Positions 7,798-61,373 of a stretch of DNA of 61,373 nt are shown piece by piece. Source of the stretch: a virus. The notes beneath the pieces were generated by a model, which was given only the letters and a program-made list of their open reading frames with translations, had not been told where the DNA came from and searched no databases. The position numbers and the translations under genes are program-made. Each line of letters begins with the position of its first letter. The first letter of the stretch is position 1. The DNA lies in UHGV virus genome UHGV-1597594; one strand, written 5' to 3'.

Positions 7798-9303
7798 TTA
7801 CAATTTGATTGCGCCTCTACGAGCAAGCTCTTCTTCAATCAATCGAACATGATTGTTAGCATACCAAAATTGCAATTTTTTGTGATAATTGCGAACGTTG
7901 CCAAGCTGTTCTTGAGTTTCTTTATACATTGAAGGCTCTCTGTTGTCATACAGACAATTGTTGACTGACACAAAGTAATTTGGGTCTGCTTTGTAATGCT
8001 CGATTTCATCAGGATTTGTTAAACGTCTAATAAAGTTGTCTGGTGAAATATTCGCCGAGCGCATACTTGACGGATACAACGAGTTTGCATCAACACAGAC
8101 AACCATACGAGCCCAATGGTTAAATGGTTGCTTAACAAAGCCGCCCTCAAATGAATGTACAACGTTCTCCGGCCCACCTTGAGCACATACAACTTTACCG
8201 CCATATTTGTTGTACAAATATGTCATCATGACGCCCTCAGATTGCTTAACTGGTCCTTGACAGTGATTCATGTCAATATTTGTCATATTTGACAATGACA
8301 TCACATTTGATATCAAGTCAGTTTTTGCAGCAATCATCGCATTGACCATCGTATCGACAGCATTATATGCAATGAATGTGCATGGATGATACAAATACAG
8401 CTCTTTAAGTGTGCAATCATAGGGTAGCTTACCTACACCAAACATGCGATGTGCAATATAGTCAAGTCGCAATGACTCTTTTTGCCACACTGAATAGTCG
8501 TATGTGTCCATGAGCTGCATGTAGTCATCAATGTACTTGTGGTATGGCATACCATTGCCCCAGACAGTTCTGCCAACTGGAGATGCCAATGCCAAATCAA
8601 TATTGTGCATTGCGCATCGATTTTTGACATAGATGTTATCGAAGCCATTGATGTTCCAGCCTGTCAATGCAGGAATGTTTTTGAAGAGCTTAGTCACCCA
8701 AAAATGCAACAATTCATGCTCATTTGCATGTTGAAAGATTTTGACAGTTGGATGTTCTTTCAAATACGCAGCAAAGCAATGTTGACCCATGTACTCTTGA
8801 ATGATGCCATTGACAAACTCAAATGCATCATCCAATGTTGGGTTTTGTTTGCCGCAGCTTTTGCGCAAATCATCATCATTCAACAAGTCAACAGTAGTCT
8901 GAATGACACAATTGCATTGTTCATCGCATGTACTTATTGCGTTGATAGGCATTTCAGCTTTGTCAGGCTTTGGAAAGCCATTGCCAATTTCAGTCTCAAT
9001 ATCGTAAAAGTACAACTTTGGTCTACGATAAGCAAACAATTCAGCTTTGTCAGCTTCAGGCAATTCAAATAAGAATTGCAGCAAGTCAAATTGATTGAAT
9101 CGTTTTGCTGTGACTCGAGTCACTGGCAATTTACGCCAATCTTGAATATCTGCATATTGAGGCTCTACGTGGTCTGATATTTGCCATACTGGAAATTGAT
9201 AAGGCTGTTCACAGACTGGGTATGTTTTGATGTCAATGCCACCTTGCTCATTAACATATGAGACTTCAATGCCATGTGACAAATATGCTACGTCAACAAT
9301 CAT
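7798..9303 (-). CDS. family B DNA polymerase, N-terminal fragment (3'-5' exonuclease domain + polymerase motif A)
   Basis: ATG at 9303. FYDIETE (Exo I), WNINGFD (Exo II), YNAVDTM (Exo III), VCVDANSLYPSS (motif A, DxxSLYPS). The ORF ends about 95 aa after motif A, without motifs B or C. Confidence 0.85.
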   Translation of the reverse strand: MIVDVAYLSHGIEVSYVNEQGGIDIKTYPVCEQPYQFPVWQISDHVEPQYADIQDWRKLPVTRVTAKRFNQFDLLQFLFELPEADKAELFAYRRPKLYFYDIETEIGNGFPKPDKAEMPINAISTCDEQCNCVIQTTVDLLNDDDLRKSCGKQNPTLDDAFEFVNGIIQEYMGQHCFAAYLKEHPTVKIFQHANEHELLHFWVTKLFKNIPALTGWNINGFDNIYVKNRCAMHNIDLALASPVGRTVWGNGMPYHKYIDDYMQLMDTYDYSVWQKESLRLDYIAHRMFGVGKLPYDCTLKELYLYHPCTFIAYNAVDTMVNAMIAAKTDLISNVMSLSNMTNIDMNHCQGPVKQSEGVMMTYLYNKYGGKVVCAQGGPENVVHSFEGGFVKQPFNHWARMVVCVDANSLYPSSMRSANISPDNFIRRLTNPDEIEHYKADPNYFVSVNNCLYDNREPSMYKETQEQLGNVRNYHKKLQFWYANNHVRLIEEELARRGAIKL

Positions 9304-9320
9304 ATATCATTATCTTTTTT

Positions 9321-9731
9321 TTAGAATAGAGATATTGTACAACAATTTGATTCAGGTTGCCATTCTACAATATGCGCATCAAAGTGTTTATTAAGCCAAT
9401 GTGCAAGTATGTGTCTATGACAAAATGCAGATGGCCTGCACCAGCATAACAATACAATATCTCTTTCGCCAGCAAGAATCTTTATGCGATGCAACATCAA
9501 ACTTATCTGTGACAATGCAGCGTCAAGTTTTGCAGTGTATTGTTCTGCATATTGTGCATTATCAAGCAAGCCTACTTTATGCAAACGAACAAGTGACATG
9601 TAATCAGGCATGACGTCAATCCATATAAAATCTGCTACGAAACCCTTGGGTTTTGTTGCAGACACTTGAACAAGAAATGCATTGTCAGGCAACTGTCTGC
9701 ATGCATAATATGAAGTCAAGATTCTTGTCAT
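9321..9731 (-). CDS. hypothetical protein
   Basis: ATG at 9731; 136 aa. Its last codons (NCCTIS) overlap the promoter-like box for the polymerase gene. Confidence 0.5.
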   Translation of the reverse strand: MTRILTSYYACRQLPDNAFLVQVSATKPKGFVADFIWIDVMPDYMSLVRLHKVGLLDNAQYAEQYTAKLDAALSQISLMLHRIKILAGERDIVLLCWCRPSAFCHRHILAHWLNKHFDAHIVEWQPESNCCTISLF

Positions 9732-11383: not shown

Positions 11384-11589
11384 CTTATTTATGATTTGAT
11401 GTCTTGTATTTATATTATATGTTGATATTGTACAACGCTAAGTGTCATTTTGCACTGTCGCCACCAATTTTTATTGATGGTGTTGCAAACAATGCAAGCA
11501 AACACCAGCCACTTTTAGTGACTGCACAAGCAACTGCTATTGCAGCAAAGAAGCTTGCATAAATGATTGCTGCAGCAAGCCAACTTGTT

Positions 11590-11886
11590 TTATCGCTGCA
11601 TTTGTTGTTCGATAAGTTCTCCATTGATAATGTCTTGTCTAATGTATACGCCCTTTAATGTTGGATGCTGCTTTATGAGTGTCATATGACCGATGACATG
11701 CACTTTGTGATTTTTAGACAACACAATGCCATGTTCAAATACAGCATGAGTATCTGTAAATCGCAGCAATTTTACTGCAGGCGCAATGCAATTGACAAAG
11801 TACAATTTACCAATTTGCGCATCTGCTGCTTTAATTTTGTCTTTCATTGTTATGCAATTTGAGTGCTGGCGTATTTTATGAGCCAA
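11590..11886 (-). CDS. hypothetical protein
   Basis: 98-aa ORF; no motif. Confidence 0.4.
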   Translation of the reverse strand: MAHKIRQHSNCITMKDKIKAADAQIGKLYFVNCIAPAVKLLRFTDTHAVFEHGIVLSKNHKVHVIGHMTLIKQHPTLKGVYIRQDIINGELIEQQMQR

Positions 11887-12134
11887 GCATACACGTCATA
11901 GTGAAAAATCTTCACATAATGCGGCATACTAAAGCATTCACCACAACTGCAATGAGCATCAATGTTGCCTGTAATGACATTATACGTTAGCCGAACAATT
12001 TCATATGACTCAGAGCCCATTTGACAATGCTGCTTAATGTCAATTGTTCTGCCAAATCGCTTACGAAACCATATCACAAGTTGTACATACAAATCATCAA
12101 TGTTTGATGTCATTGAGCAGTCTTTCATATGCAT
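11850..12134 (-). CDS. hypothetical protein (Cys-rich)
   Basis: 94-aa ORF with CSCGEC; no further assignment. Confidence 0.4.
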   Translation of the reverse strand: MHMKDCSMTSNIDDLYVQLVIWFRKRFGRTIDIKQHCQMGSESYEIVRLTYNVITGNIDAHCSCGECFSMPHYVKIFHYDVYAWLIKYASTQIA

Positions 12135-12600: not shown

Positions 12601-12992
12601 GTCTTTGCGTAGTTAATGAGCTGCTTAATATCAAAGAATGCAGGATTGTCGTACGCAGACTTGTTGTAATCGAAGATGACACAAATGTTGTTGCCAAGCA
12701 ATCTGCAGTTGCCATAGATTTTTGCAATCTTTGTGTTACGTTTCTTGTCAACGCAAATATTGATTGCTCGTACTTTCATGACATCAAGCCACTGACCAGT
12801 GTATTCATTCTGAACTGCAGATGGTTCACAAGTTGGCAATGCAAGCACATATGTCTTACCACTGTCAAGTCGTTCAATAACTTCGCCATGATATCGAGGT
12901 TCAAGAATGTTGATGCCATTAACATCAGGATTTGCTGTTCGTAATGCAACTTTCAATTCTTCTGTAGTTGCGTTGTAGTTTATTCTTTGCAT
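12594..12992 (-). CDS. hypothetical protein
   Basis: 132-aa ORF; no motif. Confidence 0.5.
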   Translation of the reverse strand: MQRINYNATTEELKVALRTANPDVNGINILEPRYHGEVIERLDSGKTYVLALPTCEPSAVQNEYTGQWLDVMKVRAINICVDKKRNTKIAKIYGNCRLLGNNICVIFDYNKSAYDNPAFFDIKQLINYAKTW

Positions 12993-18581: not shown

Positions 18582-19091
18582 TTAATATGCGCATTGTATG
18601 CGATTAACTATTTCTGTATCGCCATCGCCAAAATACACATTGTGTTTAATGTTGTTTGTTATGTCTGTCAATACAGCTGTGCCATACCAGGTAATTTCTA
18701 CGTAGCGATTTAACGCTTCGTTAAGCAATGCATCGCTAAATTCCCAATTGTAAGCATTGCTAAATCTAAATGTGCAATCTTGAGAATAGCCTGGCACCAA
18801 TGTAATGGGCGCATTTGCAACGCATTTTAATGTGTTGCCTGCGGCAGATGTAAAAACAACTTCAAGTTGTACTTGAATGTTTTGCTTTGACTTATTTGTT
18901 AAACTTTGCACATCAATGTACAAAGATGATGCATTAACTGAAATGTTGTCATCAACTTTGTTATATGTGCAATTGCCAAAGTACATATCGCCATTTATCC
19001 AGCCTTCAGTCGTAATGGCATCTTCAGGCTTTATTACAGAACCCCCCCCCGCGTTTTGCGAACGATAGTGGTCTTGAGTTACACGTGACAT
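18582..19091 (-). CDS. tail-fibre-like protein, paralog B, with in-frame G9 tract near the N-terminus
   Basis: ATG at 19091 (MSRVTQDHYRSQNAGGGSV...); the GGG codons are a run of 9 G on the coding strand. Confidence 0.65.
   Translation of the reverse strand: MSRVTQDHYRSQNAGGGSVIKPEDAITTEGWINGDMYFGNCTYNKVDDNISVNASSLYIDVQSLTNKSKQNIQVQLEVVFTSAAGNTLKCVANAPITLVPGYSQDCTFRFSNAYNWEFSDALLNEALNRYVEITWYGTAVLTDITNNIKHNVYFGDGDTEIVNRIQCAY
19042..19050 (-). repeat. homopolymeric tract, C9 on plus strand = G9 on coding strand
   Basis: accccccccc at 19041-19050, inside codons 15-17 of CDS 18582-19091. Confidence 0.9.
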
Positions 19092-57514: not shown

Positions 57515-58471
57515 TTACATTGAGATGTTAAGAATTCGCTTGACTACAGAATCGATATCATTGTTTGCTGCATTGCCCAATTCCATACGAACATTAGAAT
57601 CAATGAACAAGTCATGAAACGTTGACGCAGCTTGAACAAGATGACACCAGATTGCTCGTCTACACATTGCAAGTTCTCTGTCAGCTTTGCTGCATTGCAT
57701 GAGATACGAGTTTGCTCTATCACTGTAATATGACTGAGCATACTTGCATCGACGTTCAGCGTCATTTACAATGTATGTGTATGGAGTCTTGACGTCAAAG
57801 TAAATTTTGCAATACAATGACTCGTCATCAATTGCAAAGTCATCAATATTGACAGTCAAATCTGTCATTGCATACGTCAAACCTCTGTCATGCAAATATG
57901 CAAACATTGCAGTATAGCATTGATGCAATGTAGCAATCAATGCACATTTGTCAGTTGACTGAACAACTTTGTATGCTGCTTTGATTGCCTTTGCATATAT
58001 GAGCTGCAAACATAGTTCTTTACGACGTAATGCTTTGCGTTCAAATTGTCGCTCATATTTAATGTGCTTACATCTGCGTTTGCGTTCTGTAAGCAACTTC
58101 AACAAGTCAATACGAATGTATTTTGATACATTTGTAACAGCGGTGCCAATACTGCGCCACTGTTCAATGTTGTCAATGTCAAGTTCATGCGCAAGTGAAT
58201 GTGACAATCTGCCGTACATGTATAAGACTTTGCAGTTGTCATCGCATAATGCATACATACAGCATGATGACAGTTCAATGTCATGCTCAAATGTAGCAAC
58301 ATCAACTTCTACTGCAATGTCTGCATTTGCGCGCATACACATTTGAATATCGATATCACTCAAGTACCACTTGAAAAATGAATCAACTTCTGCAGAATGT
58401 TGACTTATGATGCGCTTGAACAGTTTGTTCGATTTCATGCTCGTACGAGTTTGATGACACAATGCCGACAA
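57515..58471 (-). CDS. hypothetical protein
   Basis: 318-aa ORF; no motif. Confidence 0.55.
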   Translation of the reverse strand: MSALCHQTRTSMKSNKLFKRIISQHSAEVDSFFKWYLSDIDIQMCMRANADIAVEVDVATFEHDIELSSCCMYALCDDNCKVLYMYGRLSHSLAHELDIDNIEQWRSIGTAVTNVSKYIRIDLLKLLTERKRRCKHIKYERQFERKALRRKELCLQLIYAKAIKAAYKVVQSTDKCALIATLHQCYTAMFAYLHDRGLTYAMTDLTVNIDDFAIDDESLYCKIYFDVKTPYTYIVNDAERRCKYAQSYYSDRANSYLMQCSKADRELAMCRRAIWCHLVQAASTFHDLFIDSNVRMELGNAANNDIDSVVKRILNISM

Positions 58472-58737: not shown

Positions 58738-59217
58738 TTATTCATTATCGTCATCATATCCCATGCAATCTTCAAGACTTGCAAAGTCATCATCAAAGTC
58801 ATCGAATTCAGGCTCTTTATTGCACCATTTGTAAGGTGGATTGTTGAGCAATTCAAGCTCTATTGCATTTGACTGTGCAGAAATCGGAACATATTCGAAT
58901 GCTTCGACTGACATGTCAAATTTGATGCAATGCAGCCACGGAAACATATCAGTGTCTTCATGCACAATTGGCTGACGAACATAGTCTTTCATTGCAATGA
59001 ACTTGCTGCCGTTGTCCCAGTCTTTTACAGGAATTTCAAATTGCGATATGACAGTATGACAGCTTTCAAAGAAATTGCAGGATACACCTACAATAACATG
59101 AGAGTCTGTACGTTGGCGTTCTATTGCAAGAAAGTCATGTTTCTTGGAAAGACGAACTTCTCCATGTTTCTCTAAGAAGATTTTAAGAAGTTCTTTGTTA
59201 ATGTCGTTGATGTTCAT
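58738..59217 (-). CDS. hypothetical protein
   Basis: 159-aa ORF, preceded upstream by the promoter-like box at 59250-59288. Confidence 0.5.
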   Translation of the reverse strand: MNINDINKELLKIFLEKHGEVRLSKKHDFLAIERQRTDSHVIVGVSCNFFESCHTVISQFEIPVKDWDNGSKFIAMKDYVRQPIVHEDTDMFPWLHCIKFDMSVEAFEYVPISAQSNAIELELLNNPPYKWCNKEPEFDDFDDDFASLEDCMGYDDDNE

Positions 59218-59382
59218 TGTTGTAGAGATTTTTGTGTACTATATTGATATATGATAATTGTACTACAAAAATCACAAATTTGCACTGATTTGATATATAA
59301 TATGTCAATAAATTTCACATACAAAAGTCTTTTCGCTTATGAAAACTACTCAACTCTGGTTTGAACGCCAGCAGTCAATCGC

Positions 59383-59389
59383 GGGGGGG
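59383..59389 (+). repeat. G7 homopolymeric tract between an upstream ATG (59339) and the downstream ORF
   Basis: gcgggggggc at 59381-59390. Confidence 0.9.
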
Positions 59390-59463
59390 CTCTTCGTGAC
59401 ACTATTATTAGCGGTACTATCAACAAAGCAGATGGTTCACTACTTGAAGCTGCATATGCAACT

Positions 59464-60117
59464 ATGCAAGAAGTCGAATGCTATGATGCTGACACTGGTG
59501 AATTCTTAGCAGGCTCACCTATCACAGTGCAGCCAAATGGCATGCCAACATATAAGTTGACAATTCCTGCAAACAGGCTTGGTGCAGGTGCATTGTCAAT
59601 TTGTTCAGTGTATCTTGATAATGTCAGTGTAAATGACTGTCTACGTTATGGCACTGGCTCCACTTTATATTGCTATGCAGGTCAAGGTGAGACGCTTGAT
59701 AATGTCAATTTGACATGTGGTGATACACTTGCATGCTTACCCTGGATTCACGAAATTCATAGAGGCGATTCAGAGACAAATGAACAACGCATAGCAATTG
59801 TGCTTGATGGCATTGAACATTTTTGCACTGATGAAGACATTCAGCTACTTGCATCGACATTGTCACACCCATTAGAATCATTTGGAGATGACAAAGTGTT
59901 TGCAGGCAAGCCTACGTACTATGACAATTGCTTTGCTGAATGGCTAATGCTCAATGATTTTCAAGCAGGCAACATGGTCGATACGTCTGTCACTGACTGC
60001 ATTTTGCTTATTGCAAATGACCCAGTAGTTGGCAATGACATCTTGATTACTCTTGAGCACATCACATCAGCGTTCAACTTCAATATGTATGACATGACAA
60101 ACTGGAATATGCTGTAA
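59464..60117 (+). CDS. hypothetical protein; full-length form probably starts at ATG 59339 in the +1 frame across the G7 tract
   Basis: ORF-track ORF starts at an internal Met; reading from ATG 59339 with one extra G in the tract gives a stop-free, in-frame extension (MKTTQLWFERQQSIAGGALRDTIISGTINKADGSLLEAAYAT-MQEVE...). Confidence 0.6.
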   Translation: MQEVECYDADTGEFLAGSPITVQPNGMPTYKLTIPANRLGAGALSICSVYLDNVSVNDCLRYGTGSTLYCYAGQGETLDNVNLTCGDTLACLPWIHEIHRGDSETNEQRIAIVLDGIEHFCTDEDIQLLASTLSHPLESFGDDKVFAGKPTYYDNCFAEWLMLNDFQAGNMVDTSVTDCILLIANDPVVGNDILITLEHITSAFNFNMYDMTNWNML

Positions 60118-60130
60118 TGAACTGCAAATG

Positions 60131-60166
60131 CACAAAAAGACTCAGCAATATTGCTGAGTCTTTTTG
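60131..60166. terminator. bidirectional intrinsic terminator
   Basis: aaaaagactcagcaatattgctgagtcttttt: 11-bp perfect stem, 2-nt loop, flanking A5 and T5. Confidence 0.75.
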
Positions 60167-60237
60167 TGTGCACTGTGACGCGCTTAATTGATACAGTCTA
60201 AGTGTAACATAGTCTGAAATGTTTACAAATTTACTTA

Positions 60238-60702
60238 TCAAATACCAATGTATATTGCGTATTCTGATGTTTTGATATCATCAGCGTCAAATTCAATTTC
60301 ACCATAGTTTTCATCACCTTGTGTTGCTATGATATGTGTAGCAAGCTTAACTTCATCATAGTACAAATCATAGAACACTTGCGTGCCTTTGTAAATTGTG
60401 ATAGCTGTGTTATTATCATACAACACTGGCGTCACTGTTTTAACAGGACCAACTTCTTGTGGCAAGGCCCTATCAAGAAATGTCAGTCTAATTGGTGTAG
60501 TGTACCGAGTATAAATATGCACGGTGAACTGCTTTAACAGCTTTCTTTGTTGGAGGGCTTGTTGTGCCCCCCCCCCAGTTACGAGGGATTTGCATATGAA
60601 TTGAGTTTTTGAAGTGAGTTGAGTTTTGATGCAAGATGCAAAACAACTAAGATGTTGTTTTGATATGTACATATGGGCAGTCAAAATATATAAAACAAAC
60701 AA
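60238..60702 (-). CDS. hypothetical protein with G10 tract near the 5' end; N-terminal boundary unreliable
   Basis: GGG codons (VTGGGAQQ) are the 10-nt homopolymer at 60567-60576; the 42 aa upstream look non-protein-like; an ATG (atgcaaatccctcgtaactgg) just upstream of the tract is out of frame by one. Confidence 0.4.
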   Translation of the reverse strand: MFVLYILTAHMYISKQHLSCFASCIKTQLTSKTQFICKSLVTGGGAQQALQQRKLLKQFTVHIYTRYTTPIRLTFLDRALPQEVGPVKTVTPVLYDNNTAITIYKGTQVFYDLYYDEVKLATHIIATQGDENYGEIEFDADDIKTSEYAIYIGI

Positions 60703-60760
60703 TTTAATAATTTGAAAAACTCATAAGCTTTATGACATTCAAATTGAACTGGGGGGGGGG
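60567..60760. repeat. 14-bp inverted repeat with homopolymers (C10-agtt ... aact-G10) flanking a ~170-bp AT-rich segment
   Basis: ccccccccccagtt at 60567-60580 and aactgggggggggg at 60747-60760 are exact reverse complements. Confidence 0.85.
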
Positions 60761-60869
60761 TCACATATCTGGCTCAATCTCTTGTTGTAACGTAGGTGAC
60801 ATTGCATTCGATGAAAAGTTTGCAGTGTTGCTTTCATGTCACATTGCATAACTTAAAACATCGAAACAT

Positions 60870-61277
60870 ATGGCAGTTCAAACACGTTCGGTACTCAAGA
60901 CATATTTTGAAACCGGAGATAAACCCACCTCAGCACAATTTGGCGACCTCATTGATAGTGCGTTGATGGCGAAAGCAACGCTTGAATCTGCGTCATTTAA
61001 TGCAGTCGCAAACACAGTGCATAATATAACGACATCGTCAGCAATAACATGCACATTGTCAAACTTAACATATGGCGAATCATGTGTTATTAATCGAGTA
61101 GGCAATGCGACAGTTTGCAATGCGACAACAACATTTGCATTCAATAATGGGCCATTGTACTATGCAGCGGGCTACTCAGATGTATCAGCAGATGCTACGG
61201 GTGCAATGTCATATGCAATTCTTATTGCAGGTAACACAACTCGTTGGGTGTTAATCAATCGCGCTTTCTACAAATAG
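60870..61277 (+). CDS. hypothetical protein (N-terminus MAVQTR shared with the next gene)
   Basis: ATG at 60870; 135 aa. Confidence 0.55.
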   Translation: MAVQTRSVLKTYFETGDKPTSAQFGDLIDSALMAKATLESASFNAVANTVHNITTSSAITCTLSNLTYGESCVINRVGNATVCNATTTFAFNNGPLYYAAGYSDVSADATGAMSYAILIAGNTTRWVLINRAFYK

Positions 61278-61354
61278 CAGACATACTTGAATGAAATTGT
61301 TCGAGCTTGTCTGCAATACAAATAACAGACAAACTTCAAACAATTTCTCATACT

Positions 61355-61373
61355 ATGGCTGTACAAACAAGAA
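61355..61373 (+). CDS. partial CDS, 5' end only; begins MAVQTR like CDS 60870-61277
   Basis: atggctgtacaaacaaga at 61355 encodes MAVQTR; truncated by the window end. Confidence 0.35.

Follow-up and report, generated by a model that had tools for sequence, protein, structure and literature searches.

The stretch of DNA analysed here, referred to as the window, comprises 61,373 nucleotides (nt) of the UHGV virus genome UHGV-1597594, and the element under study is a run of seven guanines (G7) at positions 59383-59389 on its plus strand, lying between a start codon and the gene that this start codon would be expected to serve. The run begins 44 nt past an ATG at 59339-59341 (plus strand), whose frame encodes a leader peptide, MKTTQLWFERQQSIAGG (59339..59389), that is conserved across diverged copies and whose Gly-Gly end is specified by the poly-G itself. 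In the sequence as it stands, the product of this ATG ends at a stop codon at 59507..59509 (plus strand) after 56 codons (59339..59509), not after the 49 given in an earlier note on this DNA. The gene body, as called in the G7 state, occupies 59464..60117 (plus strand; 217 amino acids (aa), with a TAA stop at 60115-60117). Its open reading frame (ORF) is open from 59365, being closed further upstream by a TGA at 59362-59364, and thus includes a 25-codon N-terminal extension, ALRDTIISGTINKADGSLLEAAYAT (59389..59463), that has no start codon of its own, the first canonical start in this frame being ATG 59464. Re-reading of the sequence placed both the ATG and the G7 run exactly where the earlier note had put them, and its proposal that one extra G would add a 42-aa N-terminus to the ORF at 59464 was also borne out: with one G inserted in the tract, an uninterrupted 259-aa ORF runs from ATG 59339. 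More generally, G8, G5 or G11 bring ATG 59339 into the long-ORF frame, and G6 or G9 bring in a TTG at 59361..59363 (plus strand), which gene callers use as the start in G6 alleles to give 251-aa products (MNASSQSRGALRD...). Because this TTG frame is shut by a TAA in one divergent orthologue, L021 (related loci are given L numbers and protein sequences P numbers), it is doubtful that the TTG is a designed start.

Runs of this kind are exceptional in the window. The heptamer GGGGGGG has 12 matches, in four tracts, against 0.05 expected from dinucleotide-preserving shuffles. G4 occurs twice and G5 and G6 not at all, followed by G7 and G10; on the other strand, C4 occurs 12 times and C5 once, followed by C9 and C10. 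These are the only four G/C runs of at least 6 nt in the window and, when read on the coding strand, each begins 19-44 nt past an ATG. The GGG codon is rare in the phage genome (2.45 per 1000). The G7 tract is not an accident of chance or composition.

The ATG and the tract belong to a conserved 5' leader cassette at 59291..59402 (plus strand), consisting of approximately 48 nt upstream of the ATG, 17 leader codons that include the G tract, and then CTCTTCGTGACAC, the cassette end after the tract reading CTCTTCGTG. Across five orthologues of the gene that follows the tract (hereafter the target gene), the cassette shows two substituted columns, both in L014, and one A4/A5 length difference upstream of the ATG. 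The stretch from ATG to tract is identical in every family-1 (F1) copy except L021, and the flanking DNA differs by about 5%. This cassette fronts at least three unrelated bodies per genome, of about 210-240 aa, among them the target and two further genes designated paralogue B and paralogue C, which share no sequence with one another or with the target beyond residue ~22. The leader consensus, M-[KN]-T-x-x-x-W-F-E-R-Q-Q-x-[IL]-A-G-G, is 17 residues long, and a search of IMG/VR with a degenerate leader pattern recovered no further lineages. Two additional leader types are present: a related one, MS.VTQDHYRSQN..GG, heads gene 18582..19091 and two genes in L016, and a third, M-x4-NWGG, heads the genes at 60595 (minus strand) and 60732 (plus strand). 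Leaders appear, from comparison of the genomes, to have been exchanged at the G tract. One gene body (SKLVYLQLVIGDA...) is found with two leaders, being preceded in L008 of contig 152288 by MNITMNWGG, with G7 in frame at 9673-9679, and in contig 149023 (L002 minus strand, 8256-8262) by a diverged family-1 leader, MKTPQFWFERQQGLAGG, with G7 out of frame.

Patterns of substitution indicate that both the leader and the extension are translated. In an alignment of five orthologues (the window, L001, L002, L013 and L014), the 74 nt between the tract and ATG 59464 contain eight variable columns. In the long-ORF frame, codon position 3 accounts for seven of these and position 1 for the other, while position 2 has none; the corresponding ratio for the body of the long ORF is 20:16:51 (positions 1:2:3). 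The earlier note had considered the added N-terminus protein-like, and a coding substitution pattern, with seven of the eight variable sites at position 3, can now be set beside that impression. Since the same substitutions fall at codon position 2 in the frame of ATG 59339, the 56-aa product is not conserved, and its tail is not conserved between paralogues either. In L021 (76% identity), ATG 59464 is replaced by ATT, yet the residues of the upstream extension are conserved. Judged by these patterns, translation covers the 25 codons that lead from the tract to ATG 59464. There is no ATG, GTG or TTG in the long-ORF frame between TGA 59362 and 59464, and translation must therefore enter across the tract from ATG 59339. 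This ATG is regarded as a real start because synonymous changes leave the leader peptide conserved in copies that have diverged: MKTPQFWFERQQGLAGG, on the minus strand of L002, carries four synonymous differences from MKTTQLWFERQQSIAGG, and the L020 copy, which reads MNTTRMWFERQQSIAGG, keeps its residues while its DNA changes.

The length of the tract was compared among relatives, as the earlier note had recommended, and alleles of G6, G7, G8 and G9 were found. When read directly from DNA, the target orthologues carry G7 in the window, L019, L013 and L002, G6 in L001 and L014, and G9 in L021; paralogue B carries G7 in L004, L006 and L012, and paralogue C has G7 in L003 and GGGTGGG in L005. For the 90% protein cluster of the target, tract lengths were deduced from the gene-caller products, and the counts refer to the members listed (15 of 31). 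Nine sequences from 67 contigs are 217 aa long, start at the internal Met and are assigned to the G7 class; four sequences (P0001, P0005, P0007 and P0015) from nine contigs are 251 aa long (MNASSQSRGALRD) and are assigned to G6, read in the TTG 59361 frame; and a single sequence from one contig, P0016, is 259 aa long (MKTTQLWFERQQSIAGGALRDTIISG...) and is assigned to G8. P0016 (MKTTQLWFERQQSIAGGALRDT...), whose G8 is deduced from its protein sequence, is exactly the predicted fusion of leader and body. Identical bodies occur with different tract states, as in P0011 and P0001. For paralogue B, the proteins point to a 233-aa G8 allele in the ON state (P0030) and a 225-aa G6 allele (P0025). The lengths required also differ among diverged copies: G6 or G9 would be required by the diverged family-1 copy in L002 (F1'), G4 or G7 by L020, whose tract is G5, and G8 or G11 by L021, whose tract is G9.

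These observations argue, with a probability of about 0.72, that a contingency (phase-variable) gene of the phage, OFF in the window, has the G7 run as its hypermutable element. The cassette would supply an ATG, a 17-residue leader and a poly-G run to unrelated bodies. With the window tract one G short, ribosomes starting at ATG 59339 would end after 56 codons and the 259-aa protein would not be made. Polymerase slippage during replication would generate G8 (ON) and G6 (OFF, or weakly ON via TTG 59361) descendants, and most particles would carry the gene silent while a minority express it, a form of bet-hedging. Slipped-strand phase variation with the gene OFF had already been suggested in the earlier note, and the suggestion is supported by the G8 fusion P0016, by the G6 and G9 alleles and by the coding extension.

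Several points weigh against this reading. The polymorphism is seen between assemblies, and switching within one clonal population is what the reading presumes. The ON allele is rare, amounting to about 1 of 77 contigs for the target gene among the members listed, and a rare ON state would also fit low-level read-through. All three paralogues are OFF in every genome for which DNA was read, whereas the other tract-bearing genes are mostly ON. In addition, the G7 is phased exactly as an X_XXY_YYZ slippery heptamer in the ATG frame. That the family is OFF in nearly all consensus genomes could possibly reflect a cost of expression, or low-level slippage could be enough for function.

The phasing of the tract is the starting point for an alternative in which G7 is itself functional and undergoes programmed recoding, either by a -1 ribosomal slip on G_GGG_GGG or by a G added by RNA polymerase, to give the fusion protein at a low set level. 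The ATG frame reads GC G_GGG_GGG CUC, and the product of a -1 slip would be the same as the G8 product. Moreover, G7 (or the 7-nt GGGTGGG) is present in 8 of the 10 copies first examined and in about 87% of contigs, and the rarity of the GGG codon and the intact, constrained state of the long ORFs likewise favour recoding. However, the tract length is not fixed, with G6, G8 and G9 alleles and a G5 in the leader family, and F1' (L002), L020 and L021 would need the opposite correction (+1, not -1). Folds of the 81 nt downstream give z-scores of 0.07, 0.09, -1.3 and -1.9, with no conserved or unusually stable structure, and the paralogues diverge 13 nt past the tract, which leaves no conserved stimulator. 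Furthermore, one paralogue-C lineage (P0033) has gained a start in the long frame through an ACG>ATG change, which would be needless if G7 were already decoded. An example of a non-slippery synonymous counterpart of the G7 leader is GGAGGTGG plus 1 nt. In E. coli, GGN heptamers are among the poorest -1 shifters, remaining at background level without a stimulator (PMC4066793). On balance, recoding is an unlikely explanation. A different proposal would treat the 217-aa protein from ATG 59464 as the real product, with the leader and tract serving as a 5' untranslated region (UTR), an upstream ORF (uORF) or a mere recombination repeat. In the majority of assemblies, ATG 59464 is indeed the start that gene callers pick, the call for the distant homologue P0054 begins at about the same position, and the leader doubles as an inverted-repeat arm. 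Nevertheless, the coding pattern in the body frame extends through the 25 codons upstream of this ATG, the residues ahead of it are retained in L021 where the ATG itself has become ATT, and the P0054 contig shares the leader, with a G5 that is out of frame and an upstream frame that is open. Given also that paralogues B and C have no conserved internal start, that the leader peptide is conserved and that fused alleles exist, this proposal is quite improbable.

The earlier note had further allowed that the tract length was miscalled, in which case the true tract would be G8 and the gene intact. Homopolymers are error-prone on some platforms, and some related contigs are of low coverage (their names show cov 3.6-5). 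Against such an error, G7 is repeated in L019, an independent contig that is 100.000% identical to the window over 2083 nt including the tract, and recurs in the L013, L002, L004, L006, L012 and L003 assemblies; longer runs (G9 and G10) were assembled in the same contigs; and the 217-aa calls dominate, with 67 contigs from several sources among the members listed. A miscall is accordingly very hard to sustain. Some gut phages recode stop codons, and if TGA 59362 were read as Trp, G7 would be in frame from an upstream ATG at 59302, to which the long frame would then extend back. TGA, however, is a normal terminator here, ending 26 of the 67 window genes; a search for tRNA genes in the window and 12 related loci yielded none; and a 1-nt difference (A5 versus A4) between ATG 59302 and the TGA in L002 and L013 would break that frame. 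On these three grounds, the reading of TGA as a sense codon is effectively refuted.

The G tract also has potential for RNA pairing. Within 59379-59399, pairing of the tract with CTCTTCGTGA, which is conserved and lies downstream, would give a hairpin of 9 pairs, G-U pairs included, ahead of a T-rich stretch, and this structure was flagged by a terminator scan; alternatively, the tract can pair with GUCUUUUCGC, just upstream of ATG 59339. The conserved downstream partner is CUCUUCGUG, and the fold has a z-score of only about -1.7. The leader hairpin is destroyed in the diverged copy that carries synonymous changes.

Homopolymer contingency loci are classic in bacteria and have been recognised in phages recently (Campylobacter phages in 2021, T2/T4 in a 2025 preprint). 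Work by Sorensen et al. in 2021 reportedly described hypermutable polyG tracts in genes of Campylobacter phages (Fletchervirus), with subpopulations in ON and OFF states. As in Fletchervirus, the present case involves a phage poly-G within coding sequence, a length change that shifts the frame and several tracts per genome, the Fletchervirus tracts lying in host-interaction genes. Unlike Fletchervirus, the phage here is a distantly T4-like gut phage of ~175 kilobases (kb) with a probable host among the Bacteroidota, and the tract is located in a shared 17-codon leader on unrelated bodies, in a cassette that doubles as an inverted repeat. PMC12823448 refers to polyG tracts in Campylobacter phages, citing Sorensen 2021. 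In T2 and T4, homopolymer contingency loci show mutant frequencies of ~3e-4 to 7e-4 (Gomez, Barrick, Waters, bioRxiv 10.1101/2025.10.21.683753), and the repeats have been proposed as bet-hedging against host defences, with reversible frameshifts at ~1e-4 to 1e-3 (bioRxiv 10.1101/2025.10.21.683753). The resemblance lies in a homopolymer in a T4-type phage, slippage in the present case being deduced from alleles. The T2/T4 repeats are mostly A runs scattered in ordinary genes and ON by default, whereas here G/C runs are purged elsewhere and cluster at the 5' ends of genes within a single hypervariable locus, and the leader family is OFF by default.

A bacterial parallel is provided by the opa genes of Neisseria, in which CTCTT repeats lie in the signal-peptide coding region of a multigene family whose copies switch independently, most of them being OFF. 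Both systems place a repeat in the conserved leader-peptide region of a gene family with most copies OFF; opa, however, is bacterial and has a pentamer repeat and homologous bodies, whereas the present system is viral and combines a homopolymer with unrelated bodies. Invertible systems offer another comparison. In Mu (G/Gin), P1 (C/Cin) and shufflons, short crossover sites join constant N-terminal to variable C-terminal parts. Like the Mu and P1 segments, the locus has inverted repeats that flank convergent variable genes, and both orientations are found in nature (the window versus L019). Unlike them, its repeats are ~110-189 nt long and contain the whole 5' module with its start codon, and no invertase was found in the flanks examined. 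For invertible segments in phages, PMC12823448 cites van de Putte 1980.

The internal proteins of T4 (IPI, IPII and IPIII) share a conserved capsid-targeting sequence, although their bodies are otherwise diverse (PMC3012670). They resemble the present family in that small proteins, unrelated and evolving fast, begin with a short N-terminal peptide that is conserved, the family here being known from genes alone, and differ from it in that the T4 internal-protein genes have no homopolymer switch. IPII and IPIII start with MKTYQEFIAE and the leader with MKTTQLWFER; 4 of the 10 residues are identical, a stretch too short for statistics, and the cleavage motif is not evident. The resemblance to T4 internal proteins may be treated as a lead. 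A tentative and rather doubtful extension of it would be that the 17-residue leader acts as a virion-incorporation or anchoring signal, that the poly-G picks which cargo or adhesin is attached or loaded in each particle lineage, and that leader recombination reshuffles the bodies, which would amount to combinatorial, mostly silent bet-hedging in host interaction.

Contingency loci themselves are known. What is new here is the gut-phage lineage, the tract in a shared leader cassette, the OFF-by-default family and the coupling to repeat-mediated inversion. The locus would extend contingency loci to a large uncultured gut phage whose host is probably a member of the Bacteroidota. Its design would also be more organised than in known cases, with G/C runs purged elsewhere and with reusable 5' cassettes placed before orphan genes and also driving inversions. 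In practical terms, tract length decides whether gene callers mis-annotate such a gene as a 217-, 251- or 259-aa variant, and the repeats interrupt assemblies. If the proteins were receptor-binding or anti-defence factors, the locus would provide a handle on how gut phages hedge against variable hosts.

The cassettes that head the target and paralogue B form inverted repeats of ~110 nt, the paralogue B partner lying beyond the window end, and the spacing between repeats is 3 kb in contig 149023 and 5 kb in contig 152288. In the window and in L013, the target adjoins an early-gene flank (gene 58738..59217). The positions are exchanged in 152288, 149023 and L012: there it is paralogue B that adjoins this flank, and the target adjoins a flank that encodes BACON-domain proteins. 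Although the BACON flank is also present in L019, this contig matches window positions 59291-61373 (2083 nt) at 100.000% identity, the match starting exactly at 59291, which indicates that both orientations exist for the same strain. Identity with the copies in the alternative context likewise begins exactly at 59291. Pfam and PHROGs scans of flanking ORFs, which represent part of the ORFs of the ~175-kb genome, revealed no invertase or recombinase. The simplest mechanism would be that the segment flips by homologous recombination between the repeats.

A second inverted-repeat arm is located at 61255..61373 (plus strand), where it is cut by the window end. The complete arm is 189 nt long and perfect in L019, in which the two copies (11792-11980 and 12803-12991) flank 822 nt containing two convergent genes that share the N-terminus MAVQTR..YFETGDKPT..QFG.LIDS. 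This 189-nt repeat, which begins at window position 61255, accounts for IMG/VR contig 152288 breaking off at the very base where the window does. The arrangement suggests that the 189-nt repeat is a second invertible element, one that breaks assemblies.

Immediately 3' of the target gene, a perfect 19+19-nt hairpin followed by a T run (60131-60168, plus strand) is likely to be the terminator of this gene; in the alternative (BACON-side) context, the leader is preceded by a similar hairpin that also resembles a terminator. Beyond it lie two of the other tracts. On the minus strand, a G10 at 60567..60576, in the leader MQIPRNWGGG, is found 16 nt past ATG 60595 of gene 60238.., which needs G9 or G12 and is OFF in the window and L019 (C10) and ON in L001 (C9). 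On the plus strand, a G10 at 60751..60760, in the leader MTFKLNWGGG, is found 16 nt past ATG 60732 and opens only a 39-aa ORF; L001 and L019 share its length of G10, and the G7 of L002 gives the same frame. This Cys-containing ORF (MTFKLNWGGGHISGSISCCNVGDIAFDEKFAVLLSCHIA, 60732-60851) lies just upstream of gene 60870 and may encode a genuine small protein or act as a regulatory uORF. Together, the two G10 tracts make up an exact inverted repeat of 14 nt (AACTG10) whose arms are 166 nt apart. A 34-nt repeat in the divergent region that separates their leaders is present as 3.6 tandem copies in L001 (7284-7406; IMG/VR 152288) and as a single copy in the window (60623-60664).

The remaining long run in the window is a G9 at 19042..19050 (minus strand), in the leader MSRVTQDHYRSQNAGGG of gene 18582..19091, where it is in frame and the gene ON. 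The cluster of this gene is mostly ON, comprising 169-aa ON forms, 170-aa forms with an interrupted tract (NAVVGRS) that are locked ON, and one 134-aa form; the two L016 genes with the same leader type have G6 and G7, both in frame. Elsewhere, a 333-aa lipoprotein-like gene (MIKKMICIAVCAWMCASCEKNDGGGFDEP...) on the minus strand of L008 (contig 152288) has an in-frame G8 at 11442-11449, just after the signal peptide and its Cys, and sits inside the invertible segment.

Nearly all window genes, including those with replication functions, are on the minus strand. The DNA polymerase is nearest to those of Chryseobacterium phage MA9V-1 (36% identity) and Tenacibaculum phages, with T4-type phages more distant. 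No nucleotide match was found among 50,697 deposited phage genomes; its close relatives comprise two contigs from IMG/VR, of 174.6 and 175.6 kb, together with several from ENA and Logan that reach up to 181 kb. One of these relatives, L019 (record ZEEV15-1_SAMEA3664609), would, going by its record name only, come from a human-gut cohort. In the alternative arrangement, the target is flanked by an ORF with weak likeness to a T4 neck protein, a 1442-aa ORF and two BACON-domain proteins (PF13004, 40.6 bits). Because of the polymerase relatives and the neck-like and BACON neighbours, a Bacteroidota host and a late structural neighbourhood are proposed; the phage is distantly T4-like, probably with a host among the Bacteroidota.

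The target protein belongs to an orphan family with only three relatives among 1.84 billion cluster representatives. It has no match in Pfam and one marginal match in PHROGs (phrog_4305, E = 0.025), a family of function unknown to PHROGs. A PDB search gave a weak single-motif likeness to designed Kelch propellers with no qualifying stretch, and the AlphaFold 2 model is unreliable (mean predicted local distance difference test (pLDDT) score of 46). From its position beside the neck and BACON-domain genes, a virion-associated or host-interaction role might be guessed. Upstream of the locus, a 318-aa ORF at 57515-58471 is absent from the otherwise collinear IMG/VR contig 152288, which marks an insertion or deletion between close relatives.

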